Positions 4,568 through 60,968 of a stretch of DNA of 64,000 nt are shown piece after piece. The stretch lies in IMG/VR virus record IMGVR_UViG_3300014806_000004; one strand, given 5' to 3'. The position numbers were made by a program, and so were the translations under genes. This DNA comes from a virus. Under the pieces are notes generated by a model, which searched no databases, was not told where the DNA came from, and saw only the letters and a list, made by a program, of their open reading frames with translations. Numbering within the stretch: position 1 is the stretch's first letter; every line of letters begins with the position of its first letter.

Positions 4568-5473
4568 TCAGCATCCGCAACTATTCATGCTATAGCAACA
4601 GTTGGGGTTTGGTACTACGTAAGCGGGAATTGGATTATCACGTCCTAATCTACGGATAAGCTCCGCAGTTTGAGCTTCTTGGTTAGCTGTAATAAAGTTA
4701 TTTTGAGCCTGTTGAGAAGCAGCGAGACGAAGAGCTTGATTCTCGTTTTGCAAATCAGAGATTTTCTCCTGGCAGAGATAATCAAGAATTGCACGAGTTC
4801 CAGCATTTTGGCTATCAATAATATCACGAGTATTATTGGCCATAGAAGTCTGAAGCGCATTAGTATTAGTCGCTAGATTGTAGTTAACGTCGGCAAAACC
4901 TCTCTCAATCTGATGACCAGTCTCGCAGCAGCAATCTGCAATTTGGCGAGAAATAGCATTTTGATTTGTGAGATTATCAAAACTTGCTTGCTGAATTGCA
5001 GATTTTGTATCACAGCAACAGTTAGAAAGCTGTGTAGCTAAAGCATTTTGACCCTGCATTAAAGCTACATTAGTACTATTGAAACCTTGCTGTGTCTGAT
5101 ATCCAAGATTGCATACTGCGTTGTCTACTCCATGGAAACCATTTGTTAAAGCATTATTTAAAGTATATGTGCTATCGCAGATTCCCTACTGGATAGAATT
5201 AATTCCAGACTGTAGATTTTGAAAAGCAAAACCTTCATTAATGTCCGCGCGGGTTGCCCAACCTTGACCAGAAGGAGAACCCAAACCATTACTGTTGGTT
5301 CCATATCCACCAAAACCGCCAAATCCATTTCCCCATCCAGAGAAGCAGAATAAGAATAGAATTATAATCCACCAAGCTCCTCCATCGTTCCAAATTCCGC
5401 CATTGTTACGATCATTGCCACCTGTAGCAGCAGCAATATCAGCTAAAGAGTATCCATTGTTAGAATTGAACAT
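4568..5473 (-). CDS. Hypothetical membrane protein with a Gly-rich N-terminus and CCC/CCxxC motifs
   Basis: Two ORF fragments are joined by TAG. It has a TM helix (WWIIILFLFCFSGW) and repeated CCC motifs. RBS AAAGGAGGAA. Confidence 0.35.
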
Positions 5474-5498
5474 TTAAGTTCCTCCTTTAAGAAAATTA

Positions 5499-6170
5499 TT
5501 AAAGGCCGAGCATTTTCTTAAAGTCAGCAAACTCCTTGTCATAATTTAATCCTCTTTGGGATAAAAGATTTCTAGCTATTTGTTCAATCTCTTCGGTTTT
5601 ATTCTATTTGGCAAGATCTAACAAATTAGCTCCAAACGGATTATTCCCCATCTAACTTTCTAATATATTTAGAGTTAGCTATTGAGGATTCTATCCATTC
5701 CTAATCATTTGAATTAACTACATTGGATTCATTTCATCGGCTCCTTAAAAATCTAATTTTGGCTTTGATTCCTGCTATTGCGCTGTAGGCTATTTATTTG
5801 CCTATGGCGCAATTTTTTCTTTTAATTGAGCAAGTACGGTTTCAAATTCTTCTCTAGTAACAAACTAAGAAGGATTGACAACTGTTTCAATCGGAATATT
5901 TTTTAATTCATAAACATTAAGTGTTGAAGTTCCATCTAAATTTATCTATTTTGTATATATTTTTTTATTAGCTAAATCAGGAAAGAAAAATACAGAACCA
6001 TCAAAGTCAATGCTAGTCGCCTTTACTTCTTCTATTGAAGAAACTGGGCGACCTTTAATTCCAATCTAGGGCTATTCCACATAAGGCATTCTTTGTTGCG
6101 GAGCATAAGGGATTGCCGCATACTAAGGCTGCTATTGTTGTGGTATATAGTATGGATAATTAACTGCCAT
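5499..6170 (-). CDS. Hypothetical protein with a Gln/Pro-rich N-terminus (about 14 TAG codons)
   Basis: RBS AAAGGAGG precedes ATG 6170. The N-terminus reads YIPQQ-TAG-QP-TAG-YAAIPYAPQQ, so TAG codons are embedded in a poly-Gln context. Confidence 0.35.
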
Positions 6171-10855: not shown

Positions 10856-10936
10856 TACAGCAAAATAACAATTCGGGACAGTTAAGATTAAATTATCCAA
10901 TAAAAAAATTATATATTCAAGTGAGGGAAATTTTAA

Positions 10937-27432: not shown

Positions 27433-27469
27433 AGGGATAATAGGGGAGGAAATCTCCCCTATTATCCCT
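27433..27469. terminator. Perfect palindromic hairpin overlapping the tape-measure stop
   Basis: agggataataggggaGGAAATctcccctattatccct. Confidence 0.5.
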
Positions 27470-30400: not shown

Positions 30401-33400
30401 CAAAAATAAGAGAATTATTAAACAACCCTTGAAGATCTGCCTAGTCTTTTGTAAGATAAGTTTCAGCTTCATTAAGTAGTTTGTTATAATTAGCTTGCTA
30501 TTTCTCTAATTCTTGAAGTTCTCTCTAGTATGCTTGAAGTTTATTGGCGCCATAGGCTCTATCTATATTATTTCCAATATCATCTAATAAATCGTTCTAA
30601 TTCTCAATTTCGCGAGTTATTTCATGGTATCTATCTTCAATATCCTTTAGAGTCTTTTCATCTTCTTCGTCATACTTAGTGCCTTCATTATCTCCGCCAC
30701 TTGAACTTCCCTTTACTCCTTCTATAGCTCCATCAATAGAATCTAATAATTTGCTCTAGGCTATTTTTGCTGCTGCTATAGCCTCATTATACCCATCAAT
30801 ACTCCCCTAATAAATGGCCCTTAGCGCTTCTCCAACTGCCTAAGATTGCTTAGCTTCAAGTGCCTCACTAGCATCACCATAAATATTTAAATCGTCTGCG
30901 GTTACAGGTTCTACATCTAAATTTGCAGTTAAAGAATTTAAGAAATCATCAGCGTTACTCGTATCTATTGTTGTTGCAGCCGAACTATCAAAAGAAACAG
31001 CAGAAGTATCAAAATCTTGCTTAGTAACATTATCAGTTCCTATTTGAGATACTTGAATTCCAGTAGCATATGCCGCATCTCTAATTTTTTCAAGATTAGC
31101 AAGAACATTTTGAGTATTTAACTATACATTAGTACTCATGTTCTGCGCGCCCTAAGCAGAATACTCGCTAACATTAGTCCATAAAGTCTACTAATTTGTA
31201 TCTTGTGCGGTTAAACTATTGACCTAATCATCTAACATTTCTCCATTAGCAAGATTCTAAGCATTTACATATCCCGCTAATAAAGTTCTCTTCTGCTCAT
31301 CTGATAATTCGTTTATAGTTAATTCTCCAGAAGCTAGCTGATTAGCGATCTTAAGCGAAGCTTCAGCCTCTCCTCGTTTAGCCTCTAAAAGAGAAATAAG
31401 ATTTTGAAGCATATTAGATTTGGTATCAGCATCAACAGCTAATTGCCCCTAAGAACTATTATAAAATGCTTGATACATCTCATCTGTTAAAGCAAATGTA
31501 CCATCCCTTAATAGTTCCGCGTTAGCTATAAAACCTGGATAGATAGATTCAATAGCCTTAGCTGCTTCTCTACTAAAACTCCAAACTTGTTCTCCAGCTT
31601 CATTGGTAGTCTAGCTTACTCCATCAGAAATAGCATCGAATACACTTACAATTCCATCAACGGAATTTTCAATCTAATCTAATTGATTCTAAAAATTTAA
31701 TTCTGCATTTATTTGTAACTAAGCTGTGCTAGAATCTATATCATCCTATAAACTACTAATTAGCTACTCTGCTAAAGTTACAGTATCAATTTTATCTTGA
31801 GCTTCTTTTGTCCCATACTCAAATGCACTAGCTACGTTATCCGCAGTTTCGGTTTTAAAAGATTCCCAATCAAAATTTTCACCTAACAAATCCCAATCAA
31901 TCGTATAATTATCAAGATTAAATTCTTCTCCGCCATTTAAGCTACCTTGATAATCATTATACGCTTCTCGAACTTGTTCCCAAGCATAAACAACTTTTTC
32001 TGCACGTTCTAATTCAGAATCGCTATATTGATTTAAAATATCCTATTGCTCAGTTATTCTCTTTTTTGCTTCACTAATCTAATCTATTAATCCATTATTG
32101 ACAGCCTAATAGGACTCATTTATAATCCTCTATAAATAACTCTATTGTTCAACTAAAGTCATAGCAAGGAACTAATTAAAATCAATAATTCCTTTTTCTT
32201 GATTTCCCCAATCAACAGTTTTAGAAAGTGATTCTAATCCTTCTCGATCTAAATCTCTATCTCCAAGAGTTTCTAAGGCAGATTGTGCAGTAGTTAAAGA
32301 TTCTGTTGCGTTTTCAACTTCGGAAATAGCATCAGTATATTTTTTAGCACTGTCATAGGCATCCTAAAAAGTCTCCTATGTTAAAGCACCCCAATTTAAT
32401 AAATTTAATACAGAAGTATCATAATTTTCATCTGTAAAAATAGATTCAAGATTACTTTTTAATTCTTCATCATTGACTAATTCTTCAACCTCTAAAATTG
32501 CGTCATAAATATCTTTAAAGCCACTAATATCAGGATTCAGAGAAGTAGATACTAAATCATTGATTATATCGTTTAATTCTTCGCCTTCATACCCAGCAGA
32601 AGTGAGCGCCTCTGTAACTTCGTTAACCCAAATTTTATACTACGCTAAACTTGATACTTGATCATCGGTAATAGTCTAATTATTAAACTCTCCAAGCTAT
32701 ACCCGAATAGTATTTATACTCTCTTTAGTTTCTTTATATTGAGTGACAACCTCTTCCATTTTATCTCGCCACTCAACAGCAGCATTGTAAAGTCCAGATG
32801 CTCCTCTTTCCGAAACAGTCATGCTATTATTCATCAAATTAATAGCATTATTTAATTGATCATAAAAATTAATTAATTCTTCTGTATTATTTGGGTCTAT
32901 AGAAAAAGCTAAGTTTCTTCTTCCGCCAATTACATTGTCATTCCAACTACTATATAAAGCGTCCACATTATTGAGAAGAATATTAGATGCAGTATCTTCT
33001 TCGGTGCCATTCCAAAAATCATTAAAACCAGTAAAAGACCCCTCATAATTTCCACCAAAATATACGTGGCCCACGCCTTCTCTCGCGGTTTCAAGAATGA
33101 GAGTTTCATTCGCACGTAACGCTTCTTCTTGGGACTACAAAGTTTCCTAAAGTTCTCTTCTTTGAGCTTCTTGAGCAGCTTTTAAAACACTATTATAATC
33201 TTCATACTATCCACTTAGTCTAGCTAATGCACTGCCTTCTAAATCATACGCTTCAGCCAACTAACGAGTTAAATCATCTAACTCTTCTTTTCCATCCCCA
33301 GTTTCTTGATAAGTAGATAAGGCATTTTGAGTAGATTGAATTAACTCTCTATTCGCTTGTGCTTCTTCTTTTTTTGCATTTGCCGCATCAATAGAGGCCT

Positions 33401-36188
33401 AAGCAGCAGCCAAGGTTGCTTCATGCTATGCTTTTATAGCACTTGTTATTGCAGTAATCGCTATTATTGCTACCATAATTGCAGCAGTTAAGATGCCGGA
33501 AGCCATAGCGGCTTTCTGCTTCGCCATAGCAAGCTATTCTGTCGCTAAAGCCTCTACTGATGTTGCCGCGGCGTCCGCCGCTGCTGCAACAGCATGAGCA
33601 GTAGTTAACATATTTAAAGTTTTATAAACAGAAATAATAGAGGGTAGTAACATACCAAGAGAAGTAAACAAAGCTACAATTCTTTCAGTTGAAGTCATAT
33701 CTTCATCAGAAAAAATTCTTCCAATGCTCTAAAAAGCATTCATAATCATAGTTAAACTAGAAAGAGAACTTCCAACCTAAACCAATATTGTAGCCCAATC
33801 TCTCGTTGGTATTAATGCTTTTGTAATTACACTAGGGAACTTCGCTAACAATTCCTAATATCGAGCCTCTTGTTCAGTTGTTCTTGCAGTAACAGACTCC
33901 AATTTTGTTAATTCATTAATATAAGAAGTAACTACTCTTGGATCGGCTCCCATAGTCTATAAAATAGTCCCAAGTTCACGAATTTGCAATTTTGCATTTT
34001 GAGACTAATTTTTTAACCCCTCTAATTGCTAAGTCAGCCATTCAATCTAAGCATAATTATGTTCTTTGCCCGTAACACTAGATAATAAATTACGAAGGCT
34101 GTCTCTAGTCGCAGTTCCAGCGCTTTCAAGTTTTTTAAATTCTTGATACACTGTATCAAGTTTTGTAGATTGCTAAATTAAACTAGTTAACTAAGTAGTA
34201 ACATCATTATAAATTTTATCAAGGTTACTATTAGCTCTTATATTTAACTAAATTTGATTACTTTTATTTCTACTATTAAATTTATTTATTTCTGCTTTAA
34301 CTTCTTCTTGCCAGCCATCTTTTATTCCTATATTAAAATAAATAGTATCTCTAAGATTTAATACATTTTCCCTAGACTAAATCTACTACTAAGAATATGT
34401 CTTTAACTAATCTTGCAAAATACTTAATTTTAACTGTTCTGTCTAAATTAATCTACGACCATTAGCATCCATCGCGTCGTAGTTACTATTTATTTGGCCC
34501 TATATATTAGCCTAGTCAACCATAATATTAAAAAGATTTTTTTCAGCCTAAGACATAGAGTTTGTTAAGCCTAATTGAGTTGCTATCTCAGCCGCTGATG
34601 CCTACAAATTTCTCGCTCTATTCTACTCTAATCCAGATAGAACTTTTATATTAGCCACCATAGAACGCATTGATTCAGCAATCTTATTTCCATAAATCCC
34701 ATTAATCAACAAAGCGGTACTAGCTAAAATACCATTTAACCCTCCCATTGCATCAATGGCGTCTGCAATACCAGATAAAAATGGAGTTAAGACATTATCT
34801 GCATTTATATACAAATCTGGATTTATGACACTATCATAAATATCCTCAGCAGATGCTTTTACTCTATCTCTAGCAGCTTCCCAAGATTCAGCATAAATAT
34901 CTGCCTGTTCCTAAAGAGATCCCTCTGCTCCATAAGCACTAGCTAAATTCTCCTAAAAGAAATCCCAATTATCCATAAGTGTAATAAGACGAGTATATTG
35001 GCGAACTCCGGCTACGGTCTAAGCCAAAGCAATCTACTAGTCATTAGATAAGGTCTCCCATTTTGAACCCATTTCATCAAGTAAGGTATCCATAGTTTTA
35101 ATCTCACCATTAACATCAAAAATATCAATACCCACTTTTTCAAGAGCTTTAGAATATTTATTTAATGTAGTGCCATCATCGAGAGTTTCTCCAAGATTTA
35201 AGCCTTGGATACGAGCAAATAAAGTTCTAAATGCTGTACCTACTGTATTAGCAGACTCACGTGTCGTAGCAGTGACAGTAGCAAGAGCAGAAGCAGCATA
35301 TTCGTAACTTAATCCAACTGTATCTGCTACAGAGGCAAATTGTTGGATACCTTCTGAAATTTCATCAGAGCTAGACGCTGTATCGGCGCCTAAACGCACC
35401 ATTACATCAGCATAATATTCAAGACTCTTACTTCCATCATAGAAGTTGTTCCAAACTGCGGTCAGCTGATCCGAAGCGGTCTATGCACTAATTCCTGCGG
35501 CATTAGCCATTTTAATAGTAGTTTCAGTTCTATCTAAAACTTCCTATTCAGTAAGACCCTATTGATAATAAATCAAAGCAGCATCACTATATTCAACAGT
35601 AGTTGTACTTAATGCTTTTGCTGCTTCATTTGCCTATTGAGCAAATTTAGCCATGTCTTCCGCAGAATTTTCAGTAACTATACGAATATTTGTTAATGAT
35701 TCATTTAGATCTTGTGCATACCCATAAGCTGATTCTATGGTTCCCACAAAACTATTTAACGCGGTGGAGGTAATCTGCCATCTCATAGTATTTTTCATAG
35801 TAATCCATAACTAATCAAATATTTTGCCAGTGCGCAATGCTGGAAGCTCCGCTTTTTGAATCGCTGTTGCTACATTTAAAAAAGCCTTTTGCCCCTCGGT
35901 ACCAATCGAAATTAACGAGTTGGCATAATCTTTAAGAGTTCTTCCGCTAGATTTTAAACTATTTTCAAAAGCTACTAAATCTAACTTTCCAGTCCCTTGA
36001 TTAAATGCCTAATGCATATAAGTAGATAACTCTAGCGCAGACTAAGAAGCTTGTCGCAATTCTGCTGTAACTTTAGAACCGGCACTGATTTTATTTAAAG
36101 ATTGAACTGCCTCGTTTACTGCTCTGTAAAGTTCAGCAGTATCAACATCAAACCCAATCTAATAATTTAATCTTCTATTATTAGCCAC
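27462..36188 (-). CDS. Tail tape measure protein (2908 aa)
   Basis: GTG start 9 nt after AAGGAGG. One frame (top coordinate congruent to 2 mod 3) links the ORF fragments 35037..35402, 34623..34814, 32697..33074 and 27882..28223. The N-terminal region has the TP901/phage TMP signature (DTVGLSYEYAASALATVTATTRESANTVGTAFRTLFARIQG...) followed by long coiled-coil sequence. Every internal stop I checked is TAG. Confidence 0.85.
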
Positions 36189-36223
36189 AATCCTTTTCCT
36201 CCTTTATCACCCATAAAACAAAT

Positions 36224-51517: not shown

Positions 51518-52564
51518 TCAACCTCTTTTCTTATTGCGACAGCGCTTACAGATACTATACAAATTATCCTTACTTGTCTTATTCTTTGAAAAGAATTGAT
51601 TATGGGCTGGCTTTAATTGCCCACACTTAGAACATTTTTTCATTGGGTATCCTTTTTGTTTATACTACCAACGTAAAAAATCTTCTAAAGCCTCTTCCGC
51701 AATGAGTTTAGGAATCTTATTTCTCCATAGGCTAGAAATATATTCAACGCTATATGTTTTACCAAACTCATTTTTTAATATTTCCTATATTTCGTTATTC
51801 TACTTTTTATCAATTTTGAGTTCAACAATTCGTAAATAGATTGGAAAGTCTTTGAGAGCTTTATCACATATTTCTTCAAATGATTGAATTAAATACCATG
51901 TATCTCCCTCAAACTAATCATAACTATCCTCTTTTAATTTTGAATAATTGCATAAAATAGCAGAAACAACATTGGCGTCCATTAGCGAAATACCCTTTAC
52001 CACTACCTCCTGTCCATTAAGATAACTCTAATCATCAAGAGGAATATGAGTTCTTACGGATCTCGTTAATTTACATGGTATAATAGGTTTCTAATATGCT
52101 TGCTTAATGATATACTAATCTTTTCGCATCTCTATTAATGCTTTTTTCATCATATATGCCTATTTTGTCCCAGCAGCGCGTTTTAAAGCGCCCTCCCAGA
52201 CATTAATGGTTTCTCTCAACTATTTTAAACATGGTATAGTATCTAAATCTTTCTGTGTAATAGAAATCTTTGGCTAAAATATAACATTTTTATTTTCTGA
52301 CATTAAACCATAAATGCCATCCTCGCCATTTTCCATCTATGACACAAGCCCTTCGAAAGAACATTCTCTTTTATTAACAGTAGCCATTCTATTATCTGTT
52401 AATATATTCTTTTCTTTCTTCTCTTGCTTTTCCATACATAGAACTAAATAATCTGCTAATATTTCTAAATAACTCGGAGTAAGATCCGGATTTTCTTCGA
52501 TTATTTTTTCGACAAGCGCTTTTCGCTCTTCTGGAGACTCAATAGTATAATCTAATTTTATCAT
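51518..52564 (-). CDS. Hypothetical first gene of the late operon (C-terminal zinc ribbon)
   Basis: ATG 52564 after AAAGGAGATGACAG. 348 aa with about 14 TAGs. The C-terminus reads CSKCGQLKPAHNQFF...YSICKRCRNKKRG. TGA stop. Confidence 0.35.
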
Positions 52565-52686
52565 ACTGTCATCTCCTTTTATACTCATATAATAACAAAA
52601 AAATACTAGATTGTCAAATCTTATTTGATTAATTAAAATTATAATGCTATAATATAAATAGAAAATAGTAGGAGGAATATAAAGAA

Positions 52687-53028
52687 ATGTTCTTCGATGA
52701 ACCTTACAATGCACTACCAAAAAACGCATAGTATTATTTTAATATTTTAATTGTATGTATCGCTGTATCTCCATAGTATGCCCAAGAGACATTTCAATAG
52801 AACATTATTAATATGTGGGATATATAGGGAATTACAGACGGGAGACCTTATGCTGTCCATATTTATACAACACATCATATAAATAAAGATTTTTAGTACG
52901 AATTATAGTGCTTACCTCATTAGGTGTTAGAAGTAGACAGCGAATAGGGTATATCTTTTTATGATATGATAGATTATTATACTGATGATCCATGGAGGCT
53001 AGAACCAGAGAATGACGAAATAGATTAA
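52687..53028 (+). CDS. TAG-dense small ORF (113 codons, 9 of them TAG) overlapping the folD start
   Basis: A strong RBS TAGGAGGAA lies 7 nt before ATG 52687. The frame stays open to TAA 53026 only if TAG is sense. Whether it is a real gene is uncertain. Confidence 0.3.
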
Positions 53029-53800
53029 TATAAAAGAGTATTTTAAACAAGAGATAGAGAAATTGCTGGTTGATAGATCTGCAATTCCTTCTCTCATGAT
53101 TATCGACGCGACGGCCTAGGATCCCGCAAATCAAATTTATATTCGTAATAAAATAAAAGACTTTAATGCTCTTGGTTGGAAAGCAGAAGTATTTAGAGCT
53201 AATAGTTCAGTAGAATTAAAGTTATTTTTAGACCATGCGAAAGATTGGGATGCTGTAATAGTCCAAATGCCAATAGCAGACGGGATTGATTTCAATTATA
53301 ATCAAATACCTGTTTCTAAAGATGCAGATGGATTAAATCCAATGAGTAATATTACTCCAGCAACAGTAAGAGGAATTATAGATTATTTGGATAAATGTGG
53401 CTTTAACTACGAAGGTAAATCTGCTGTTGTTTTGGGAAGAAGCGATATTGTAGGAAAGCCAATGGCTAAAGCTCTTCTAGATAGAAATATGACCGTATCA
53501 ATGTGTCACAGTAAAACAGATATAAACACAAAACTCTATTTAACAAGACAAGCGGATTTAATTATCTCTGCGGTAGGAAAATTTAGCTTAACAAGAGAAG
53601 CCTGTCCTAATGCTATTGTTATAGATGTTGGTATTCGTAGAAATGAAGCAGGAATTATTCTTGGAGACTTTGTAGAAATTGATGAAATTGCAAGTAAAAA
53701 TAAGGTATGGTCAACTCCTGTCCCCGGAGGAGTAGGTCTATTAACAAGATTGGGGTTGATGAAAAATTGTTTATAGTTAGCGAAACAGGCACAAAGATAA
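53012..53800 (+). CDS. folD: Bifunctional methylene-THF dehydrogenase/cyclohydrolase
   Basis: It has DATA-TAG-DPANQIYIRNK (compare E. coli VGSNPASQIYVASK), DAVIVQMPIADG, KDADGLNP, GRSDIVGKPMAKALL and TPVPGGVGLLT. Two internal TAGs, plus an apparent TAG stop at 53774 followed 8 codons later by a TAATG overlap with the next gene. Confidence 0.75.
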
Positions 53801-54147
53801 TGAAATTTTCGGAAGATTTTGACAAATATGCTAAAGATATATTGCATATTCAAAACCCCTTTAAAAAATGGTTTAGAAGGTTGGATGAGGCCATCTCTAT
53901 TAGTGATGGAACTATAACTGTGGATGTAGACACCTCAAATCAAATAGATAGAGAAACAAAAGTAAACAGAGAAGAATGGATTAAGTTAAGAGATAGGTAT
54001 GTCGCAGAGAGAATACTGCGGGAACTTGGGTATGAAGTTCTATTAACCTCGTCTTATTTCGAATACTATCCTGATGCTATTCCTTGTGAAGGGGCTTCAG
54101 GGCAATGTACAATAGACTGTAGAATGAATGGATGTAAATATGAGTAA
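53800..54147 (+). CDS. Hypothetical protein with a Cys-rich C-terminus
   Basis: The ATG overlaps the TAA of the read-through folD. Confidence 0.4.
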   Translation: MKFSEDFDKYAKDILHIQNPFKKWFRRLDEAISISDGTITVDVDTSNQIDRETKVNREEWIKLRDRYVAERILRELGYEVLLTSSYFEYYPDAIPCEGASGQCTIDCRMNGCKYE

Positions 54148-54148
54148 A

Positions 54149-54328
54149 ATGTGTCCTTGCATTGATTATTGTTATAATAGATTCGGTCGGTAGTACACAC
54201 CAGACTGCGACAATACTTGCGATTATGCAATTAAAGTTAAAGAAAATAAAATGCTTAAAGAATATTTAAAGAGATTAGCGGCGGAAACAAATAGTTTACA
54301 CACTTTATTTGAAGATTGGGATAATTAA
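54149..54328 (+). CDS. Small Cys-rich protein (one TAG)
   Basis: MCPCIDYCYNRFGR-TAG-YTPDCDNTCDYAIK... Confidence 0.3.
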
Positions 54329-54372
54329 ATTATCCACTTCTGCCCAACCGCACGGAAGAAAGGAAACTGCAA

Positions 54373-55230
54373 ATGAAACGAGAAGAGCTCAAACAACACG
54401 CGCAATCGCATTACGCAGACATTAAAGTGAGACTCAAGGAAGATACAGATCGCGCAATTATAAACTCTGAAATTTTTGGCCCCAATCTTCCTTTTCCGCT
54501 AAAACCGCAAGAAACCTACCATAATACCTTTTATCTTAAAGACCAAGATAGCGTATCCTGTCTATTTGGTTTAACCGATCGGAGCAAGACCGCAATCTTA
54601 AATTATGCAAGCTATAAACATCCAGGTGGTTACTTCCTTGGAGGCAGCTCTGCACAAGAAGAGGCATTGTGTCACGAAAGCAACCTTTATCCTATTCTTC
54701 TTGCTTTTGATGATACTTATTACGCATGGAATAGACAGAGACTAAATCGAGCCCTATATCTTGATAGAGCTATCTATACTCCTGATGTAGTATTTGAAAA
54801 AGACAATGGTAGAAAATTAGCTGATGTAATTACTTGTGCTTCTCCTAATTATAGAACAGCACATACTTATCAGCAAGTTCCTCTTTCTCTAAACAATAGG
54901 ATAATGGAAGAGAGAATTAATTTTATGTATCGGATTGCCGAGGCTAAGGGAGTGGAAAATTTAATCGCGGGAGCCTGGGGCTGTGGTGTTTTTATGCAAG
55001 ATCCATCAACGGTCGCCACCTTGCTCGTAAGCGCAGCCCGCAATTATAATATTCCAAATATTTATTTTGCAATTCCCGCAATTTTAGAATTTTCTTGGAG
55101 GTTTTGGAAAAATGTTCAAGCAATTAATTATCGCAAGACGAGATTTAAATATGTCTCCAGGGAAACTTGCCGCACAAGTTTCCCATGCTTCTATTGCTTT
55201 TCTTTTGGAAAAGTTATATTGGGGAAGTAA
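54373..55230 (+). CDS. Macrodomain protein of the bacterial PARG-like (DUF2263/TIGR02452) type
   Basis: NYASYKHPGGYFLGGSSAQEEALCHESNLY fits the PARG signature GGG-x6-8-QEE. GAWGCGVFMQDPSTVA is also present. The 3' 119 nt overlap the next gene in another frame. Confidence 0.5.
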   Translation: MKREELKQHAQSHYADIKVRLKEDTDRAIINSEIFGPNLPFPLKPQETYHNTFYLKDQDSVSCLFGLTDRSKTAILNYASYKHPGGYFLGGSSAQEEALCHESNLYPILLAFDDTYYAWNRQRLNRALYLDRAIYTPDVVFEKDNGRKLADVITCASPNYRTAHTYQQVPLSLNNRIMEERINFMYRIAEAKGVENLIAGAWGCGVFMQDPSTVATLLVSAARNYNIPNIYFAIPAILEFSWRFWKNVQAINYRKTRFKYVSRETCRTSFPCFYCFSFGKVILGK

Positions 55231-55549
55231 AGAAGTTGTTAAAGAAAGAGACGGTCTTATGTATCATATAGGAATAAGCCTCGATAGAGACTTATTCCAT
55301 AACTGGATAGCGGAAGCGGAGACCAAAGTAGTTTGTAGAGCGAAGAATAAGAATGATTTGCTAAAAGCTGTTGCAATGGCTAAAGAATTAGGATGGGAAG
55401 AGAATAAAGACTACTGGCTTATTTATGATGCTTGTAGGACGGAGTTAGAGCGTGAAGGCCCGGAAGGGACTTTGACGTGTATTGGATTTAGGCCAATGGA
55501 GGCGGAAGAAATTGATAAAATTGGGAAGAAGTATCAGCTTTATAATTAA
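55112..55549 (+). CDS. pth2: Peptidyl-tRNA hydrolase, PTH2 family
   Basis: It has LIIARRDLNMSPGKLAAQVSHASIAF (Pth2 catalytic region), ...KVVCRAKN..LL.AVAMAKELG and LIYDACRTELE..GTLTCIGFRP. Confidence 0.6.
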   Translation: MFKQLIIARRDLNMSPGKLAAQVSHASIAFLLEKLYWGSKEVVKERDGLMYHIGISLDRDLFHNWIAEAETKVVCRAKNKNDLLKAVAMAKELGWEENKDYWLIYDACRTELEREGPEGTLTCIGFRPMEAEEIDKIGKKYQLYN

Positions 55550-55712
55550 CATAATATTAATCGTATTGTTGTTAACTGCTTGCGGAAAGGAGAACGATCG
55601 TTATCCAAGGCTAGAGTATATTCCTACAATGTGGAGATCTGATGCGACTAATATTAAACTAGAGGATGGATATAATTTGATTTTTAATTTTGAAGCAACC
55701 GACGATGGATAA
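55512..55712 (+). CDS. Putative small lipoprotein
   Basis: Signal peptide with lipobox LLLTAC|GK. The start codon is uncertain (in-frame TTG candidates at 55482, 55512 and 55521). It overlaps the pth2 3' end. Confidence 0.3.
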   Translation: MIKLGRSISFIINIILIVLLLTACGKENDRYPRLEYIPTMWRSDATNIKLEDGYNLIFNFEATDDG

Positions 55713-55727
55713 GATGCGGAGAGAAGA

Positions 55728-55752
55728 AGTGAGTTCTTCTCTCTTTTTCGTT
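55728..55752 (+). terminator. Rho-independent terminator
   Basis: ggagagaagaaGTGAGttcttctctc followed by TTTTT. Confidence 0.55.
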
Positions 55753-55955
55753 ATTGAGATTGAAAAGTCGATTTAGATTTTGAAATGGCGTGGCAGAACG
55801 ATTTTACAAAAAAATTTCCAGTTTTTCCCAAAATACACGCCCCTCTTTCACATGGTAAAGTATTGAAGTGTAGTTGGCCTCTTTCACTCGTTAAAGTACG
55901 AAAGCAAGAAAGCACGCCCCTAAAGGAATACGCGCGCGTAAAGGGTTTATGCAAA

Positions 55956-55986
55956 CTGCACAACAAGATGTTATTTATTTTGTGCA
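55956..55986. promoter_or_regulatory. Palindromic operator pair TGCACAA-N16-TTGTGCAA
   Basis: The same inverted pair recurs at 59088-59119, 62216-62247, 63827-63857 and 63863-63903, with degenerate copies at 57655-57686 and 61059-61091. Confidence 0.5.
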
Positions 55987-56113
55987 AAAGAGAGAGAAAG
56001 AAATTTCAAAAAAACTATTGACAAGTGAGCATTTTGGTGGTAAACTGGACTTGTCCAGTAGGACAGAGACAAAAGCACGGCACTTTGAAAATTAAAAAAT
56101 TTCAAAAAAGGTA

Positions 56114-56142
56114 TTGACAAACTGCTAAAGGTTTGATACAAT
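56114..56142 (+). promoter_or_regulatory. Sigma-70-type promoter (TTGACA-17-TGaTACAAT). A second similar promoter lies at 56019, each preceded by an A-tract
   Basis: aaatttcaaaaaaggtaTTGACAaactgctaaaggtttgaTACAAT. The upstream copy is aaatttcaaaaaaactaTTGACAagtg. Confidence 0.5.
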
Positions 56143-56195
56143 ACAGACAGAACAAAAGAGAACCACATCACAAAAAGAAAGGGAGTCAAAAGAGT

Positions 56196-56570
56196 ATGAA
56201 AAAGATTGATTTTACCAATGAAGATCGAGCCATTATTATGGAGTATATGGCGGCTAAGATGGCTAAGTCTGCGGCGGAGGCGGCGGAGAAAGCAGCTAAG
56301 GCTAAGGCTAAAAAGCTATTCTCCAGATTAGGTAAGGCTTTTAAGGCTACGGACAAAACAAGTTATCTATATGGCACGGTACAAATGCAGGGTAAGGCGA
56401 AAGCGGTGGTATATAAAGAAACTACCGCAAAAGGAACGGTTGACTGGAAAGCCTATGCTATGGCATTAGGCGGGACAAAGGCCGAAGCAGAGCAATTCCG
56501 CAGACCTTCCGATGTTCGTACCTCTTTTGATTGGGCGACAAAGACCCAAGAAGAAGAAATTAGAGGATAA
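56196..56570 (+). CDS. Hypothetical basic Ala/Lys-rich protein
   Basis: RBS AAGGGAG, ATG 56196. It lies downstream of the tandem promoters. Confidence 0.4.
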   Translation: MKKIDFTNEDRAIIMEYMAAKMAKSAAEAAEKAAKAKAKKLFSRLGKAFKATDKTSYLYGTVQMQGKAKAVVYKETTAKGTVDWKAYAMALGGTKAEAEQFRRPSDVRTSFDWATKTQEEEIRG

Positions 56571-56574
56571 CAGT

Positions 56575-56610
56575 TTATAAACCCTGCCTTGCAAAACACA
56601 AGGCAAGGCA
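56575..56610 (+). terminator. Rho-independent terminator
   Basis: aaccctgccttgcAAAACACAAggcaaggcagggtt. Confidence 0.6.
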
Positions 56611-56644
56611 GGGTTATAATAATTAAAAGAAAGGGGCATACTAT

Positions 56645-56791
56645 ATGTATCAGTTACAAGTTTTAGCCAATGAGAAAATGCGCTATTATGAACCATTCAC
56701 CCTTTCAATGGCAAGATGGAAAGCCAGTCACGAGATAGTCAATCCTAATCATTGGATTGTGGATTTATCCAGTGGAGAAATCGTAGATTAA
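56645..56791 (+). CDS. Hypothetical small protein (48 aa)
   Basis: RBS AAAGGGG precedes ATG 56645. Confidence 0.3.
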   Translation: MYQLQVLANEKMRYYEPFTLSMARWKASHEIVNPNHWIVDLSSGEIVD

Positions 56792-56837
56792 AAAGAAGCT
56801 GACCTAACGGCTATACGGGGAGAAAGGATAAAAGACT

Positions 56838-57140
56838 ATGAACAATTATATTAAGTGGTTCGTTGGGCCTACTTTTAGAAAGCGTGAATTTATTAAACTT
56901 TTGCGGTATAAGATGAATGTGCGTTCCGCAGAGGTAGAGGACGGCATCATCTTAGACCTGGATGCTTTTAATGCCATGCGAGTGGCCTATATGCCACACT
57001 GGGCTTATATCAATAGAAAGTTTATCAATAGTAATCTGCATACCAGAATTGCAAGCGAAGACGAATATAAGGTTGCTATGATCGGAGATACAATCGGCAC
57101 TGAATGGGTTAAAGAACAGGAGGCAAAGAAATGGAAATGA
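56838..57140 (+). CDS. Hypothetical protein
   Basis: Intact ORF with RBS AAAGGATAAAAG. Confidence 0.4.
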   Translation: MNNYIKWFVGPTFRKREFIKLLRYKMNVRSAEVEDGIILDLDAFNAMRVAYMPHWAYINRKFINSNLHTRIASEDEYKVAMIGDTIGTEWVKEQEAKKWK

Positions 57141-57283
57141 GAATTATTAAGCGGATAGGAGGCGGCATTTGTGCCGCTCTCCTACTCTGGACAGTTCTTA
57201 GTTGGGCTGATATAGTGGCGGATAACTGTGAGCCAAACCCACAGCACAGCGAATATAATATGTTCGTTCTCATGACTAAATAA
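57137..57283 (+). CDS. Small membrane protein (48 aa)
   Basis: ATGA overlap with the upstream stop, plus a hydrophobic helix GGGICAALLLWTVLSW. Confidence 0.3.
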   Translation: MRIIKRIGGGICAALLLWTVLSWADIVADNCEPNPQHSEYNMFVLMTK

Positions 57284-57296
57284 TAGGAGAAAAAAA

Positions 57297-57530
57297 ATGT
57301 ATAGAGGGACTTATATCGACGCCATGGGCCGCAAGCGCAGAGAGATGGGATATTTCAGTCTTAATAAGCCCACTCTGAATAAACTCCATATACCAGTAAT
57401 TGTCCAAGCGAGAGATAAGACAAGTGCGGCGAATAAAATCAATAGGAAATATAAGTTGCGTATAAGTCCCAGCAATCTGCGGGAGGTGCCGATGGGCACG
57501 GGCTATCTCATGGAAACCATGGAGCTGTAA
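57297..57530 (+). CDS. Hypothetical protein
   Basis: RBS GGAG precedes the ORF, which is followed by the terminator at 57545-57576. Confidence 0.4.
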   Translation: MYRGTYIDAMGRKRREMGYFSLNKPTLNKLHIPVIVQARDKTSAANKINRKYKLRISPSNLREVPMGTGYLMETMEL

Positions 57531-57544
57531 AGGAATAATACTTG

Positions 57545-57576
57545 ACTGGCAATCTGCACAAAGATTGCCAGTCATT
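57545..57576 (+). terminator. Rho-independent terminator
   Basis: tgactggcaatcTGCACAAAGgattgccagtca followed by TTTTT. Confidence 0.55.
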
Positions 57577-57798
57577 TTTATGCACTTTTCCATATTGACT
57601 TTTCGCCGGGCCGCCAGCGTGCGCCGCGGCCCGAATTTTTATTTATTCGGCAATTTCAACAATTATATGACCGAAAGTCTGTGCAATTCGACGAAAGTTT
57701 TTCTCCCGAAATTACTTGACATTCCTCTTGTCATGTGTTATTATATACTTGTCCAGAGGGGCAAGGTCACAAAAAGAATTTGAAAGGAAGTAAAAGAA

Positions 57799-58038
57799 AT
57801 GACTTTGAAAATGATTGCAGGTCTGCTTTCTCCGCTCGCAGAAGATACCATGTTCTTTGACGGGAAAGGGGTCGAAATTATCAATGAGAATACCCAAGCT
57901 CATTACCATGAGCTACCTGATCACAAGATAACCCTGGGAGGAGACGTCATTGAGGCGTCTAAGGAATGGGTGCTGGGACTTCCGGTAACTGGTATTCAAG
58001 CAAGAGGCAACAATCTAATCATTTATGTAGATGGTTAA
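57799..58038 (+). CDS. Hypothetical protein
   Basis: Promoter TTGACA(57715)-17-TATTAT lies upstream. The ORF is followed by the hairpin gggagtggaggCCACAAAcctccactccc (58047-58078). Confidence 0.4.
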   Translation: MTLKMIAGLLSPLAEDTMFFDGKGVEIINENTQAHYHELPDHKITLGGDVIEASKEWVLGLPVTGIQARGNNLIIYVDG

Positions 58039-58100
58039 GAAAACTTGCGGGAGTGGAGGCCACAAACCTCCACTCCCCATGATAAAAAGGAGGAATAAAT

Positions 58101-58316
58101 ATGATTGCTGTTATTAAATTTGAAAGTGTAGAAAAATCTGCGGAGTTTGGAGACACAATTTGTAATATGGCTGGTTGGTGTTTGAATCATCCTCTTAATT
58201 CCAATGTTACCGGCTGTGTTCGTACTCTTGATTTTAATACCGGCGATAAACAAGATAGAGCCTTATATAATTATCTGCTAAAAATTGGAGCTTTCGAGGA
58301 GGTGGAACTAAAGTGA
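58101..58316 (+). CDS. Hypothetical protein
   Basis: RBS AAAGGAGG precedes ATG 58101. Confidence 0.4.
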   Translation: MIAVIKFESVEKSAEFGDTICNMAGWCLNHPLNSNVTGCVRTLDFNTGDKQDRALYNYLLKIGAFEEVELK

Positions 58317-58724
58317 GTATTGAGCGTTTACCGCATACATATCCTATCGGTTCCACTGTTTGGACAAATAAGGGATATGGCACAGTTCTACTTCACATTG
58401 GTAAATACCATCTGGTTTGGTTACAGAGATTAGGGCTGGCGTAATGCCGGCCCTATTGATTTTTTCAAAAAAATATATTATAATAATTATAGAAAAATAA
58501 AGAAAGGAGTTTTTCTAATGACCTTAGAAGTGCTGTGAAAGCACTCGCGGTTATTTTGGAGTTCTGTTTGAACTAGGATTCTTGTAAAAATTGTCCTATG
58601 TCTCAGTTCTGCCAGAAAATGCCTTGCGAGTGGTAAATGTTCCTTCCGATTGTTCTAAATCGGCGATTCCCGTGATGGAGTCGTTTTTCGCACGAGCCTA
58701 GGTCACTAGAATTTATTTATCAAA

Positions 58725-58958
58725 ATGCAAGAAACTACTTTCTCTCGCAAATTGGATTCAAGTGGTAGAATTATGATTCCGATTCGTTTGCGTGAACAAA
58801 TGGGACTTACTTCCGGTTAGGAATACTATTTCACTACTATGGTAAAAGATGGCAGAAAATACATCTGCATTGACTGCGGGTCGGTTAATTCTTCGCTTGA
58901 AGAAGCTATGAAAATTATCCAAGCAAACGGATTAAAGATTGTTGAAAATGCCGATTAA
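58725..58958 (+). CDS. AbrB/MazE-type (SpoVT_AbrB domain) small DNA-binding protein with one in-frame TAG
   Basis: KLDSSGRIMIPIRLREQMGLTSG-TAG-EYYF is the swapped-hairpin AbrB N-domain. It is preceded by a ~170-nt hairpin-rich leader. Confidence 0.45.
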
Positions 58959-59230
58959 CTTCTCAAAAGAAAGGGAGTTGTTGGTATGCAGAAATTAATG
59001 ACCTCCTGAAATTCAGGAGGTTCTTTTTTTATTCGTTCGCCCGGCCGTGCACCACAGGCGCGGCCGGATTTTTTATCAAGAGGCAATTTGCACAATTTTA
59101 GGCTCGAATTGTTGTGCAATCTGACGGAAGATTTTTTCCCAAAATTGCTTGACTTTCTATCTGTTATCTGTTATACTTGTATCATCAAGAGGGGAGAACA
59201 AAAGCCCTCGAAACAAAAGGAGAATGAGTT

Positions 59231-59464
59231 ATGTATCTGGTAATGGCTGACAGTAGAGAAAAGATTATCGGCGTTTCTGATACTGAAACTGGCGCACGCC
59301 ATGCGGGATGGGACTGGCTCAAGGCCCAGTATTCCGAAAGCGAGTGGAGCCAAATTCTGGAAGATATGGACTATGAGAATGAAGGGGACTTGCGGCATGA
59401 CCTTCTCATGGGCGCATATTGGGAAGATTTCGATATGGAGATTATCGAGGTTAAGAGGGTATAA
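59231..59464 (+). CDS. Hypothetical acidic protein
   Basis: Promoter TTGACT(59149)-17-TATACT lies upstream, with RBS AAAGGAG. Confidence 0.4.
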   Translation: MYLVMADSREKIIGVSDTETGARHAGWDWLKAQYSESEWSQILEDMDYENEGDLRHDLLMGAYWEDFDMEIIEVKRV

Positions 59465-59493
59465 ACCCTCTTAACCAGAAAAGGAGTATATAT

Positions 59494-59646
59494 ATGACTA
59501 CCTTCACAATGATTGTTTTGATTGCGTTTGTGGCCTGCCTTGCATGGCAGTTAATGGCGGCTGCTCAAAAAGGCTGTATTCGGCTTGAAATCATGTTTGC
59601 CGCAGAAATTCTAATGTTCGCATATTTGGCAAAAAATTTGATGTAA
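59494..59646 (+). CDS. Small membrane protein (50 aa)
   Basis: RBS AAGGAG and a single TM helix. Confidence 0.3.
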   Translation: MTTFTMIVLIAFVACLAWQLMAAAQKGCIRLEIMFAAEILMFAYLAKNLM

Positions 59647-59730
59647 AGGGTTGACAAACCGCTTAAACAGTGGTATAATCAATAATGTAAAGAGAAGGAA
59701 AACTCATTAAACCAGAAAGGAAATATTGCT

Positions 59731-59961
59731 ATGTATAGAATGACTGAGCAGGATAGACAGGGGATTATTCTTCTGCATAAGACCATGGAGGAGTTCTGCC
59801 CAGGAGAAGCAGCACAGGCAATGCTCCAGTCTTTGGGGAAATTCCTGCGGATCGGCATGTGTACTCCCGATGACGCGGCCGATATTATCAAGGGTATTTT
59901 CGATGAGGAAGCCGATAAGGCGGTTGATGAAATGACTATGATGGATTTACTTTCCTTGTAA
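59731..59961 (+). CDS. Hypothetical protein
   Basis: Promoter TTGACA-17-TGgTATAAT (59655-59685) lies upstream, with RBS GAAAGGAAA. Confidence 0.4.
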   Translation: MYRMTEQDRQGIILLHKTMEEFCPGEAAQAMLQSLGKFLRIGMCTPDDAADIIKGIFDEEADKAVDEMTMMDLLSL

Positions 59962-60055
59962 AAAGGGGTTGACAAATTGCCCCTTCTGTGGTACAATAAG
60001 ACTATGGAAGGGGCAGCCCCAAAAATAAATTAAAATAAGAAAGGGAGTTTTAGAA

Positions 60056-60454
60056 ATGCGTGTTACTAAGAGGATTGAAGCCTATATCAATGACGAGGTC
60101 AACAAGATTGCGAACGCCAAGCGAGAGGAAATCCGAGCCAAGTATGCGGGAGCTATGAAAGAGTTTGAGGATTTTATCGAGGAAGGCCGGAAAGAGATTG
60201 GGGCGCTGAATACAAAGATTATTGAGCGCGCCACGGCAAAGGGATATAAGCTCCGCCGCTATTATGACCCGGAGTGCGCCAAGTCAAATATGTGCAGTCT
60301 TTACAACCCCATCAATCAAACGATGGATGAAGAGCTGTCCACTGTGACAAAGTGGGTAGAGGAAAATGCAAGTCTGATTTGTGTCAAGCTGGAAATGGGC
60401 GGCGATATGAAAACTCTGTCTACTCTGCTGGACGAACTGCGGAAATCGCTTTAA
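60056..60454 (+). CDS. Hypothetical protein
   Basis: Promoter TTGACA-TGgTACAAT (59967-59997) lies upstream, with RBS AAGGGAG. Confidence 0.4.
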   Translation: MRVTKRIEAYINDEVNKIANAKREEIRAKYAGAMKEFEDFIEEGRKEIGALNTKIIERATAKGYKLRRYYDPECAKSNMCSLYNPINQTMDEELSTVTKWVEENASLICVKLEMGGDMKTLSTLLDELRKSL

Positions 60455-60509
60455 GGAAAGGAGGCGCGGGAGTATAGGACTTGTATTCTATGCTCCCGCG
60501 ATAAAAAAA

Positions 60510-60968
60510 ATGAGAGCTGTTGGTATTGTTCGACATATTGATGACCTAGGGCGTATTGTTATTCCTAGAGAAATTCGTAGGAGTATGCGAATTAGAGAAG
60601 GCGACCCTATGGAAATTTTTCTTGATGGCGACTGTATAGCCTTCAAGAAATATTCTCCACTATCTTTTTTCGTTGACCATGCCCACGAAATGCGAAATGC
60701 CCTTTCTGTTAATCACATTTCCGCGGCGATCTTCGATTCAGATAAACTTTTAAGCGGGCCTAGTTCTTTCAAAATTTCTATACCACCAGATGAATGGAGT
60801 AATATCAGCCAACCTGCGACAGCGTGGAAATCTATGTTTATTACTCCCATTTTTTCTGATGGGGGACAAATTGGATTCATTTGTTACAAAAATCTGCACA
60901 ATGATGAATCTATTCACGAAATGGTTAAATTAGTCGCAAGGTATTTTTCAAATATGGCTGAAAGATAA
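60510..60968 (+). CDS. SpoVT/AbrB-family transcriptional regulator (AbrB N-domain plus a C-terminal GAF-like domain)
   Basis: MRAVGIVRHIDDLGRIVIPREIRRSMRIREGDPMEIFLDGDCIAFKKY is the AbrB N-domain, and the ~100-aa C-terminus is arranged as in SpoVT. Confidence 0.6.
   Translation: MRAVGIVRHIDDLGRIVIPREIRRSMRIREGDPMEIFLDGDCIAFKKYSPLSFFVDHAHEMRNALSVNHISAAIFDSDKLLSGPSSFKISIPPDEWSNISQPATAWKSMFITPIFSDGGQIGFICYKNLHNDESIHEMVKLVARYFSNMAER

Follow-up and report, generated by a model that had tools for sequence, protein, structure and literature searches.

A 13-nt deletion accounts for the long overlap of a PARG-type macrodomain gene and a PTH2 gene in a TAG-recoded gut phage

Background

Poly(ADP-ribose) glycohydrolases (PARGs) of the bacterial type are described from T. 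curvata (3SIG), D. radiodurans (DRB0099, 5ZDA-G) and S. coelicolor (SCO0909). A ribose-cap loop near the C-terminus contacts the ADP-ribose and governs the choice between exo- and endo-activity: the cap limits the T. curvata enzyme (TcPARG) to exo-activity, whereas the D. radiodurans enzyme (DrPARG), which has a smaller cap residue, shows endo-activity, and the E112A exchange in the signature loop of DrPARG abolishes activity (PMC6445106). ADP-ribosylation of the RNA 2'-OH by RhsP2 is reversed by PARG-type hydrolases only, and bacterial PARGs protect E. coli from RhsP2 (PMC11833690). In D. radiodurans the PARG is part of a putative repair operon, DRB0100-DRB0099-DRB0098, in the order RNA/DNA ligase, PARG and HD-Pnk. 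Peptidyl-tRNA hydrolases of the Pth2 family are known from archaea and eukaryotes (1RLK, 3ERJ, 1XTY, human Bit1/PTRH2), and a PTH2 of jumbo phages was proposed to free tRNA from peptidyl-tRNA in RNA repair or ribosome rescue (Iyer et al. 2021, PMC7824862). Here we analyse two overlapping genes, one for a PARG-type macrodomain and one for a PTH2, in a stretch of 64,000 nucleotides (nt) from the IMG/VR virus record IMGVR_UViG_3300014806_000004; this whole stretch is called the window.

How does the locus compare with these systems? The window PARG falls into the same hidden Markov model (HMM) family as the three bacterial-type enzymes and has the fold, the QEE catalytic loop and the GAxGCGVF loop in common with them. 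On the other hand, it is encoded by a phage, the third Gly of its signature is a Tyr, and its cap loop and C-terminal helix are frameshifted. The PTH2 has the Pth2 fold and the motifs GK...Q and D..(T/C)..TE, as the archaeal and eukaryotic proteins do, whereas it scores below the equivalog level, carries an insertion after helix 1 and lies beside FolD in a recoded phage of about 140 kb. Like the jumbo-phage protein (PMC7824862), it is a phage copy of a non-bacterial Pth type. The D. radiodurans operon places a PARG in a nucleic-acid repair setting; in the window there is neither a ligase nor a Pnk, and the partner of the PARG is the PTH2. We show below that the overlap of the two genes is the product of a small deletion in the PARG gene and that this gene pair is evidently dispensable and repeatedly eroding in the phage population.

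Results

The overlap and its origin

The two genes and the elements around their junction are the following:

54373-55230, plus strand: PARG open reading frame (ORF), 285 amino acids (aa), frame 1, TAA stop (ORF list)
54373-55077, plus strand: conserved part of the PARG, residues 1-235, ending in IYFAIP (family profiles, relatives)
55069-55076, plus strand: deletion junction, the single remaining copy of the 8-nt repeat GCAATTCC (DNA alignment)
55078-55230, plus strand: out-of-frame PARG tail of 50 codons (AILEFSWRFWKNVQ...VILGK) with the TAA (protein alignment)
55077-55127, plus strand: remnant of the ancestral PARG C-terminus in frame 3 (RNFRIFLEVLEKCSSN, TAA at 55125-55127) (sequence reading)
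55097-55101, plus strand: Shine-Dalgarno (SD) sequence GGAGG of PTH2, 10 nt upstream of its ATG
55112-55549, plus strand: PTH2 ORF, 145 aa, frame 2 (ORF list, PF01981)

The ORFs overlap out of frame by 119 nt (55112-55230), and both the coordinates (54373-55230 and 55112-55549) and the overlap given in an initial annotation of this stretch were reproduced. With the PARG protein, seven related loci (L001-L007; further loci are numbered in the same way) were retrieved from IMG/VR. In L001-L006 the PARG is intact and has 254-255 aa (254-256 aa among relatives generally); the window protein is 97% identical to it in L001-L004 and 66% in L005/L006. The intact proteins end in IYFAIP(N/D)RNS(R/Q)NFR.F, and in L001-L006 their TAA lies 16 nt inside PTH2 (ATGTTCAAGCAATTAA). 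For example, PARG and PTH2 are at 4938/5001..5768 and 5753..6190 in L001 and at 5001..5765 and 5750..6187 in L005. In all intact relatives the overlap is 16 nt or none.

In the nucleotide alignment, 13 nt (GCGATTCCAAACC) are missing from the window between copies of GC(G/A)ATTCC; the relatives read GC(G/A)ATTCC-AAACC/TGACC-GCAATTCC at this place. Since the deletion shifts the frame directly after FAIP and the first stop in frame 1 comes only at 55228, the PARG ORF runs on into PTH2. An indel census lists the event as 'del 697, 13, GCGATTCCAAACC' in the window and in L017-L022. L007, which belongs to the L005/L006 clade, has lost the same 13 nt independently, which marks the repeat as a deletion hot spot. 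In L006 the repeat is perfect (8/8).

We propose that the ancestral state was a 255-aa PARG with its TAA 16 nt into PTH2, i.e. a compact and translationally coupled pair. Replication slippage between two copies of GCAATTCC would be the simplest route to the deletion, after which the PARG frame would be shifted right behind the last beta-strand (FAIP) and 50 unrelated codons would be translated. PTH2 would be left unaffected, as it retains its own SD sequence and ATG; the GGAGG is identical in L001-L004, and its counterpart in the L005/L006 clade is a weaker AGGT.

The deletion is a real circulating allele. The identical 285-aa PARG is found on at least 13 contigs from at least six samples (JGI, ENA and Logan assemblies), and the carriers have 40 substitutions in common relative to L001 and thus form one lineage. 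It is also a minority allele. A scan of metagenome contigs for the junction pattern gave six intact sites and one deleted site, the latter in L197, a 143-kb human-gut ENA contig in which large parts of both genes are gone as well, and most of the listed members of the 474-member PARG cluster at 90% identity (15 of the 40 covered) have 255-256 aa. Public gene calls in L017-L022 (around 3833-4177) cut the PTH2 to 92-114 aa or omit it in order to avoid the long overlap; database entries of this PTH2 are therefore in many cases artefacts that lack the N-terminus.

The initial annotation had offered a sequencing indel or a +1 frameshift fusion as the cause of the overlap. There is indeed an indel, namely the 13-nt deletion seen in the alignment, but it is not a sequencing error. 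Short indels are common assembly errors and the site is repetitive; yet the same ORF comes from independent JGI, ENA and Logan assemblies of different samples, its junction is found again in the ENA human-gut contig and its carriers are a clade, which leaves an error in one contig a practically negligible chance. A programmed +1 frameshift that yields a PARG-PTH2 fusion protein is hardly more credible. If tRNA-Phe slipped on UUU_U (55102-55105), just past the SD-like GGAGG, the window allele would yield a protein of PARG residues 1-244 and the full-length PTH2; frame 2 is open from 55088. Against this, the overlap and the shift site are only as old as the deletion and are not conserved, being a lineage-specific product of it, and PTH2 is a separate gene with its own GGAGG and ATG in every relative. 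Moreover, the A site holds neither a rare codon nor a stop codon, the spacing to the SD sequence appears to be wrong for a prfB-like shift, and there is no PARG-PTH2 fusion among the 240 homologues listed (the best 120 per search). An Rfam scan of 52000-60500 at E <= 0.1 gave no known frameshift or regulatory RNA.

Identity of the two proteins

From its sequence, the PARG ORF is assigned to the bacterial-type poly(ADP-ribose) glycohydrolase macrodomains (PF10021, TIGR02452), in agreement with the PARG-type call of the initial annotation. It matches the microbial PARG family PF10021 with E = 8.6e-26 and 91.5 bits (cut-off 23.5) and TIGR02452 with 166.3 bits, compared to 170.8 bits for the intact L001 protein (cut-off 50), and its conserved part is 97% identical to the intact L001-L004 proteins. 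The signature motif PGGYFLGGSSAQEE is present at residues 84-97. The catalytic loop GGYFLGGSSAQEE is kept (P84-G85-G86-Y-FLGGSSA-Q95-E96-E97) and aligns with GGGFLGGAQAQEE of DrPARG. The position of the third Gly of the GGG-X6-8-QEE signature, which is Tyr in the window, is variable across the phage clade, whereas G85, Q95, E96 and E97 are invariant among 33 homologues, and so are G200, A201, G203, G205 and F207 of the diphosphate loop GAWGCGVF. The best solved relatives are the PARGs of D. radiodurans and T. curvata. The AlphaFold2 (AF2) model of an intact 256-aa relative, P0121 (90% identical to L001), has a pLDDT of 92.8 and is matched by Foldseek to T. curvata 3sig (TM 0.82, E = 2.6e-17) and D. 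radiodurans 5zdb (TM 0.79). PHROGs has no family for the PARG, and a search for publications on TIGR02452 in phages gave none that appeared relevant.

The PTH2 call, too, agrees with what we find: the protein matches PF01981 over the complete profile (1-115 of 115; E = 1.2e-22, 80.8 bits, cut-off 23), and its best solved relatives are archaeal Pth2 proteins. Its AF2 model (pLDDT 87.8) is matched by Foldseek to 1rlk (E = 3e-9, TM 0.81), with TM values of 0.80-0.81 for 1rlk/3erj (normalised to the target) and similar results for 1wn2, 1q7s and 1xty. In an alignment with 25 homologues G17, D100, D106 and T110 are invariant and K18 is conserved in at least 90%. K18 and D106 stand at the places of the active-site Lys (GK) and Asp (D-x-x-x-T); in Ta0108 their counterparts are the GK and the D. 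We take K18 and D86 to be the catalytic residues of the S. solfataricus Pth2. The protein belongs to phrog_1866 (2.9e-21), which PHROGs labels as 'unknown function', and stays below the NCBIfam equivalog cut-offs (NF003314 82.2 vs 126 bits, TIGR00283 66.2 vs 82 bits). By these scores the phage PTH2 represents a divergent subfamily (phrog_1866) and not an orthologue of archaeal Pth2. The insertion after helix 1 comprises about 25 residues in the window and varies from 20 to 75 residues across the homologues. The exact window PTH2 sequence occurs on 80 contigs, and the ratio of non-synonymous to synonymous substitution rates (dN/dS) relative to L001 is 0.05, i.e. the gene is under strong constraint. 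As far as its sequence tells, the window PTH2 gene is apparently intact.

What the deletion removes from the PARG

In the alignment of 33 PARG members, two residues stand out after FAIP: N241 is near-invariant (at least 90%) and F245 is invariant. Both are lost in the window, whose tail is unrelated to the ...NRNSRNFRIFLEVLEKCSSN of the relatives. The profile-to-PDB alignment places N241 opposite Thr267 of DrPARG, the ribose-cap position, and in the P0121 model the last beta-strand (229-233) is followed by a helix at 240-253 that is predicted with confidence. Thus, the ribose-cap loop and the C-terminal helix are absent from the window allele and present in L001-L006 and L013-L016. In agreement with this, the TIGR02452 match covers profile positions 21-264 in the intact protein and 21-252 of 266 in the window, where it stops at residue 235. 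Without its cap loop and C-terminal helix, the window copy is most likely inactive or severely impaired, as far as can be judged from the model of the intact relative. The dN/dS of the truncated PARG relative to L001 is 0.17 (7 non-synonymous and 11 synonymous substitutions), which are too few substitutions to decide on selection. Differences among the carriers are synonymous only; we dropped this observation as evidence of selection, as the carriers had been retrieved by exact protein identity.

Erosion of the module in the phage population

The pair is flanked by the following features:

53012-53800, plus strand: FolD, methylene-tetrahydrofolate dehydrogenase/cyclohydrolase (PF02882 2.6e-38, PF00763 6.9e-09, translation with TAG read-through)
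53800-54147, plus strand: small Cys-rich ORF, about 115 aa from MKFSEDF (ORF lists of the window, L001, L005 and L040)
55482-55712, plus strand: small putative lipoprotein ORF with signal peptide and lipobox LLTAC (ORF lists)
55718-55744, plus strand: terminator-like hairpin, 11-bp stem and T run (consensus scan)

The gene order is therefore FolD, small Cys-rich protein, PARG, PTH2, small lipoprotein and terminator. We compared the indels of 13 related loci and the window relative to L001. In independent assemblies (L007, L017-L026 and L197), deletions of 6-39 nt and a number of larger ones (80-320 nt) accumulate within the stretch of PARG, PTH2 and lipoprotein ORF (L001 4980-6500), and FolD and the genes past position 6500 of L001 are almost free of indels. 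The PARG is broken in L007, L023, L025 and L026; for example, L023 has a 26-nt deletion that removes GGSSAQEE, and L026 has four deletions of 9-10 nt. The PTH2 is affected as well: L023-L025 have a 17-nt frameshift in common, and L020-L022 have in-frame deletions of 9-12 nt. A 109-aa version of PTH2, in which 36 core residues (W65...D100) are gone, is found on at least 19 contigs including an NCBI metagenome assembly. It occurs, for example, in L013-L016 (L013 4001-4330) beside an intact 254-aa PARG. From the residues that are missing, this widespread version is probably non-functional.

About one third of the deletion events have an exact microhomology of at least 5 nt, compared to 2% in random placements; the remaining two thirds have little or none. 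Microhomology thus explains the clustering only partly, and relaxed selection, deletions that escape CRISPR or selection for loss may be among its causes. It is this population-wide clustering of short deletions in PARG, PTH2 and the next small ORF from which the dispensability of the module is evident.

Linkage of PARG and PTH2

We scanned the best 80 PTH2-bearing and the best 80 PARG-bearing viral loci with HMMs in six frames, with a range of 4 kb. A PARG was found near the PTH2 in 11 of the 80 PTH2 loci, and a PTH2 near the PARG in nine of the 80 PARG loci. Ten contigs appear in both lists; the two genes are adjacent in eight of them and about 22 kb apart in the other two.

Three gene orders were observed. 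PARG precedes PTH2 in the window family and in L027 (PARG 52% identical; PTH2 of a 198-aa type, 43% identical). In L040 and L043-L045 the order is PTH2, lipoprotein, PARG. In L105, which has a GC-rich and unrelated context, the PARG is followed by an unknown gene and by a fusion of an N-terminal domain to PTH2. These three orders in divergent phages point, with moderate strength, to a co-selection of PARG and PTH2. The L105 region (1928-4456) consists of a 280-aa PARG, an unknown 275-aa ORF, a 343-aa protein and a metallophosphatase-like ORF; PTH2 is the C-terminal half of the 343-aa protein, fused to an unknown N-terminal domain, and the PARG lies 1.2 kb away.

Homologues of the PARG also occur in Lak megaphages, Bacillus phage G and huge uncultured phages. 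In L030 (772-3777) the PARG (43%) lies directly downstream of a 722-aa protein that combines a kinase (AAA_33), a metallophosphatase and a T4-type RNA ligase, and in L028 (2483-4195) it lies between a NadR-like AAA_28 gene and DUF5662. The PARGs of these two loci are 43-44% identical to the window PARG. Through these contexts, PARGs of phages and bacteria are connected with RNA repair and NAD metabolism; L030 echoes the ligase-PARG-Pnk operon of D. radiodurans.

Homologues of the PTH2 (phrog_1866) are found in Enterococcus phages among DHFR, thymidylate synthase and FolD. FolD is the conserved upstream anchor of the module; L012, L027, L040 and Enterococcus phage VRE9_2 also have it close to PTH2. 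The small Cys-rich ORF is kept between FolD and the slot of PARG/PTH2; it has no match in Pfam, PHROGs or PADLOC. On the other side, the lipoprotein ORF begins inside the 3' end of PTH2, in a different frame. The two genes have about 32-68 nt in common across the loci; in the window the start of the lipoprotein ORF is likely the TTG at 55512, which gives an overlap of 38 nt. The ORF has no family match. It stands beside PTH2 in the relatives (L001 6123-6395; L040 4386-4625; lipobox LLTAC or LTGC) and is retained even where the identity of the PTH2 is just 60%. This suggests that PTH2 and the lipoprotein gene form a second, genuine overlapping-gene junction. We infer that the hairpin closes a PARG-PTH2-lipoprotein unit.

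The phage and its genetic code

The locus is an accessory region of a large, siphovirus-like, TAG-recoded phage of the human gut, of about 140 kb. The window encodes portal, virion and tail proteins. TAG is read as sense in the late genes. With TAG read-through, 79 kb are covered by ORFs of at least 100 aa, compared to 30 kb under the standard code, and the strongest single evidence is the following ORF:

27462-36203, minus strand: ORF of 2914 aa with 100 in-frame TAG codons

This is probably the tape-measure protein, in analogy to Phass-1, whose tape-measure protein has 3149 aa (PMC10607447). The view of the initial annotation that the genome suppresses TAG is thus upheld. FolD has three in-frame TAG codons at positions common to the relatives, and there are none in PARG, PTH2 and nearly all other plus-strand genes of 53.7-63.3 kb. 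A tRNA scan of the window found no tRNA gene, so the suppressor tRNA would be encoded elsewhere. A blastn search of 53000-56000 against the INPHARED phages gave no match; hence the phage appears to have no close cultured relative. The nearest portal matches (tblastn) are Phass-1 (36%) and the Enterococcus phages EF1 and VRE9 of about 140 kb (29.5%), and from this distant kinship a Bacillota host is likely (compare PMC10607447).

Several other genes of the window were observed in passing. A formate/nitrite-transporter-like membrane protein (131-730, plus strand; PF01226 2.6e-15) suggests, together with FolD, a phage-encoded one-carbon/formate metabolism. A candidate diversity-generating retroelement lies at 9005-13088 (plus strand). 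It comprises a reverse transcriptase (11862-13088, PF00078 1.3e-16) and, upstream, a 617-aa ORF (9005-10855) with eight in-frame TAG codons, Ig-like repeats and a C-terminus rich in Cys, Tyr and Trp, which could be the variable target. There are also a serine recombinase/resolvase (PF00239 1.2e-30), an AbrB/MazE-type DNA-binding protein (PF04014), a dUTPase and a RuvC-like resolvase, the stop-to-stop ORF of which has nine TAG codons; the coordinates given for this set are 6748-7467 (minus strand), 60411-60968 (plus strand) and 1479-2662 (plus strand).

Discussion

We explain the locus by the 13-nt deletion, the impairment of the PARG and a facultative repair function of the intact module, and we give this explanation as a whole a probability of about 0.55. 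An intact PARG would strip ADP-ribose from the 2'-OH or phosphate ends of RNA or from poly(ADP-ribose) (PAR) chains; the ADP-ribose would have been put there by ADP-ribosyltransferase toxins or defence effectors. The PTH2 would release tRNA from peptidyl-tRNA or N-blocked aminoacyl-tRNA, which would pile up when translation is attacked, and both enzymes together would keep the translation of the phage running. The functional step, i.e. that the genes form a facultative pair reversing RNA and tRNA damage, has an even chance at best, judging by the protein families and the neighbourhoods. The function proposed for the phage PARG is modelled on the activities of bacterial PARGs, namely exo- and endo-hydrolysis of PAR and reversal of 2'-OH RNA ADP-ribosylation.

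Several observations weigh against this explanation. The repeat has one mismatch in L001, where the exact microhomology at the 13-nt site is 2 nt only. The dN/dS of 0.17 is not yet pseudogene-like, so that the deletion is recent or function has been retained. The link between the genes is facultative: 69 of the 80 PTH2 loci and 71 of the 80 PARG loci have no partner within 4 kb, PTH2 occurs without PARG in L012 (FolD, small protein, PTH2) and in Enterococcus phages, and L028 has a PARG without PTH2. Two of the three arrangements share a FolD-anchored variable region, and an insertion hot spot could mimic linkage. Finally, the ten further window ORFs that were scanned include no ADP-ribosyltransferase, Tpt1/KptA or RNA ligase; the only matches are to FolD, dUTPase, RuvC, resolvase, reverse transcriptase and the formate/nitrite-transporter-like and AbrB/MazE-like proteins.

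Other explanations have to be weighed against these points. PARG and PTH2 may be unrelated neighbours in an insertion hot spot downstream of FolD, without a joint mechanism; PTH2 would then give general support to translation, and the PARG would be separate cargo for the turnover of PAR or protein ADP-ribose or for NAD/ADP-ribose metabolism. In favour of this, PTH2 stands alone in L012, in Enterococcus phages and in an integrase-bearing element, and the PARG alone in L028, next to the NadR-like AAA_28 gene, and in L030; most loci have just one of the two genes, the position of the PARG relative to PTH2 differs in the FolD region of two lineages, and the region is rich in indels. On the other hand, the PARG of L105 is close to the PTH2 fusion in an unrelated, GC-rich context, the genes are adjacent in eight of the ten contigs common to both top-80 lists, and the 16-nt coupled overlap of the intact genomes suggests co-expression. 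We regard such an unrelated neighbourhood, the main rival explanation, as rather unlikely. A lower chance still is given to a working PARG in the window, perhaps of endo-type or broader specificity, whose allele is kept by selection. The window protein still has all beta-strands as well as the catalytic and diphosphate loops, the allele occurs in at least six samples with synonymous-only differences among the carriers examined, the dN/dS is 0.17, and the cap restricts TcPARG to exo-activity, DrPARG being endo-active (PMC6445106). However, the synonymous-only variation is an artefact of ascertainment, and L197, the sole carrier found without identity bias, has lost most of both genes. In addition, an invariant Phe and a confident terminal helix have been swapped for out-of-frame sequence that was never selected, and the allele is in the minority (1 of 7 junctions). 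All this makes a functional window enzyme quite improbable.

The PTH2 might serve the TAG recoding, a possibility that the initial annotation had named, by recycling peptidyl-tRNA from ribosomes that stall or drop off at unsuppressed TAG codons. The phage is recoded and the biochemistry is plausible; Lak megaphages, which we take to be TAG-recoded, carry a PARG-like gene. Nevertheless, an unsuppressed TAG is normally resolved by RF1 and not by drop-off, and several recoded relatives have a PTH2 with a frameshift or an internal deletion. PTH2 has the same FolD/folate neighbours in Enterococcus phages whose annotation follows the standard code, and one such carrier, EF1, is absent from the list of recoded genomes in PMC10607447. 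The integrase-bearing element has a 42%-identical PTH2; there, TAG read-through does not lengthen the longest ORF, a test of ORF length in 8-kb loci that is only weakly informative. With homologues in standard-code phages and in this element, the PTH2 is an old accessory gene of the phage group that is not tied to recoding, and we consider a role at TAG codons very unlikely. A literature search that joined peptidyl-tRNA hydrolase, phage and stop codon recoding found no paper.

What remains of the idea that the genes are an anti-defence pair? It is plausible and is supported to some degree by the recurrent neighbourhoods in three gene orders; the link is facultative, and decay of the genes is frequent. 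A stricter version holds that PARG and PTH2 are a dedicated counter-measure against RNA-targeting ADP-ribosyltransferases, be they defences or toxins, of the kind of RhsP2 or CmdT. The lesion would be ADP-ribosylated tRNA or other RNAs of translation together with the resulting peptidyl-tRNAs, the pair would be recruited repeatedly by phages, and the cap-less window allele may have an altered specificity. We regard such a dedicated role as unlikely. A PADLOC scan of PARG, PTH2 and their neighbours found nothing relevant, in a library of defence and not of anti-defence proteins.

The targets named in the initial annotation fare differently. DarT is a poor candidate and an unlikely target of the window PARG: the hydrolases reported to reverse ADP-ribosylation on DNA bases are NADARs and macrodomains of the DarG/TARG1 type, and PARGs are not among them. 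Orphan ADP-ribosylhydrolases of phages that counter DarTG follow the same concept, a phage hydrolase that removes ADP-ribose added by a defence system (PMC11825919). However, these enzymes and the DarG/NADAR antitoxins act on DNA bases and are NADARs or TARG1/DarG-type macrodomains, whereas PARG-type enzymes form a different macrodomain clade and are reported to act on ribose-ribose and 2'-OH RNA linkages. In the case of the GNAT toxins (TacT/AtaT), reversal by a peptidyl-tRNA hydrolase, which cleaves N-acetyl-aminoacyl-tRNA, is well established (bioRxiv 10.1101/2021.12.20.473312). The established enzyme is the bacterial Pth1, to which PTH2 is unrelated in fold, and no GNAT toxin was seen in the context of the locus.

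Conclusions

Each of the two protein families is known and has been described from phages before. The new contribution is modest and consists of a clade of PARG-type hydrolases in phages, their recurrent but facultative juxtaposition with PTH2, and a well-documented erosion by micro-deletions. As a frameshift allele, the 119-nt overlap does not warrant annotation as a fusion or a recoding site. The module is a natural example of how accessory genes erode by micro-deletion in an abundant, uncultured lineage of TAG-recoded gut phages. These practical points are more certain than the proposed function. If the proposed function is true, phages carry PARG-type hydrolases as a portable immunity to RNA ADP-ribosylation, the reversal of which has so far been shown only for bacterial and human PARGs, and PTH2 would be the partner of the PARG that keeps the tRNA pools usable. 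PARG and PTH2 are thus a concrete candidate pair for work on defences that target translation.

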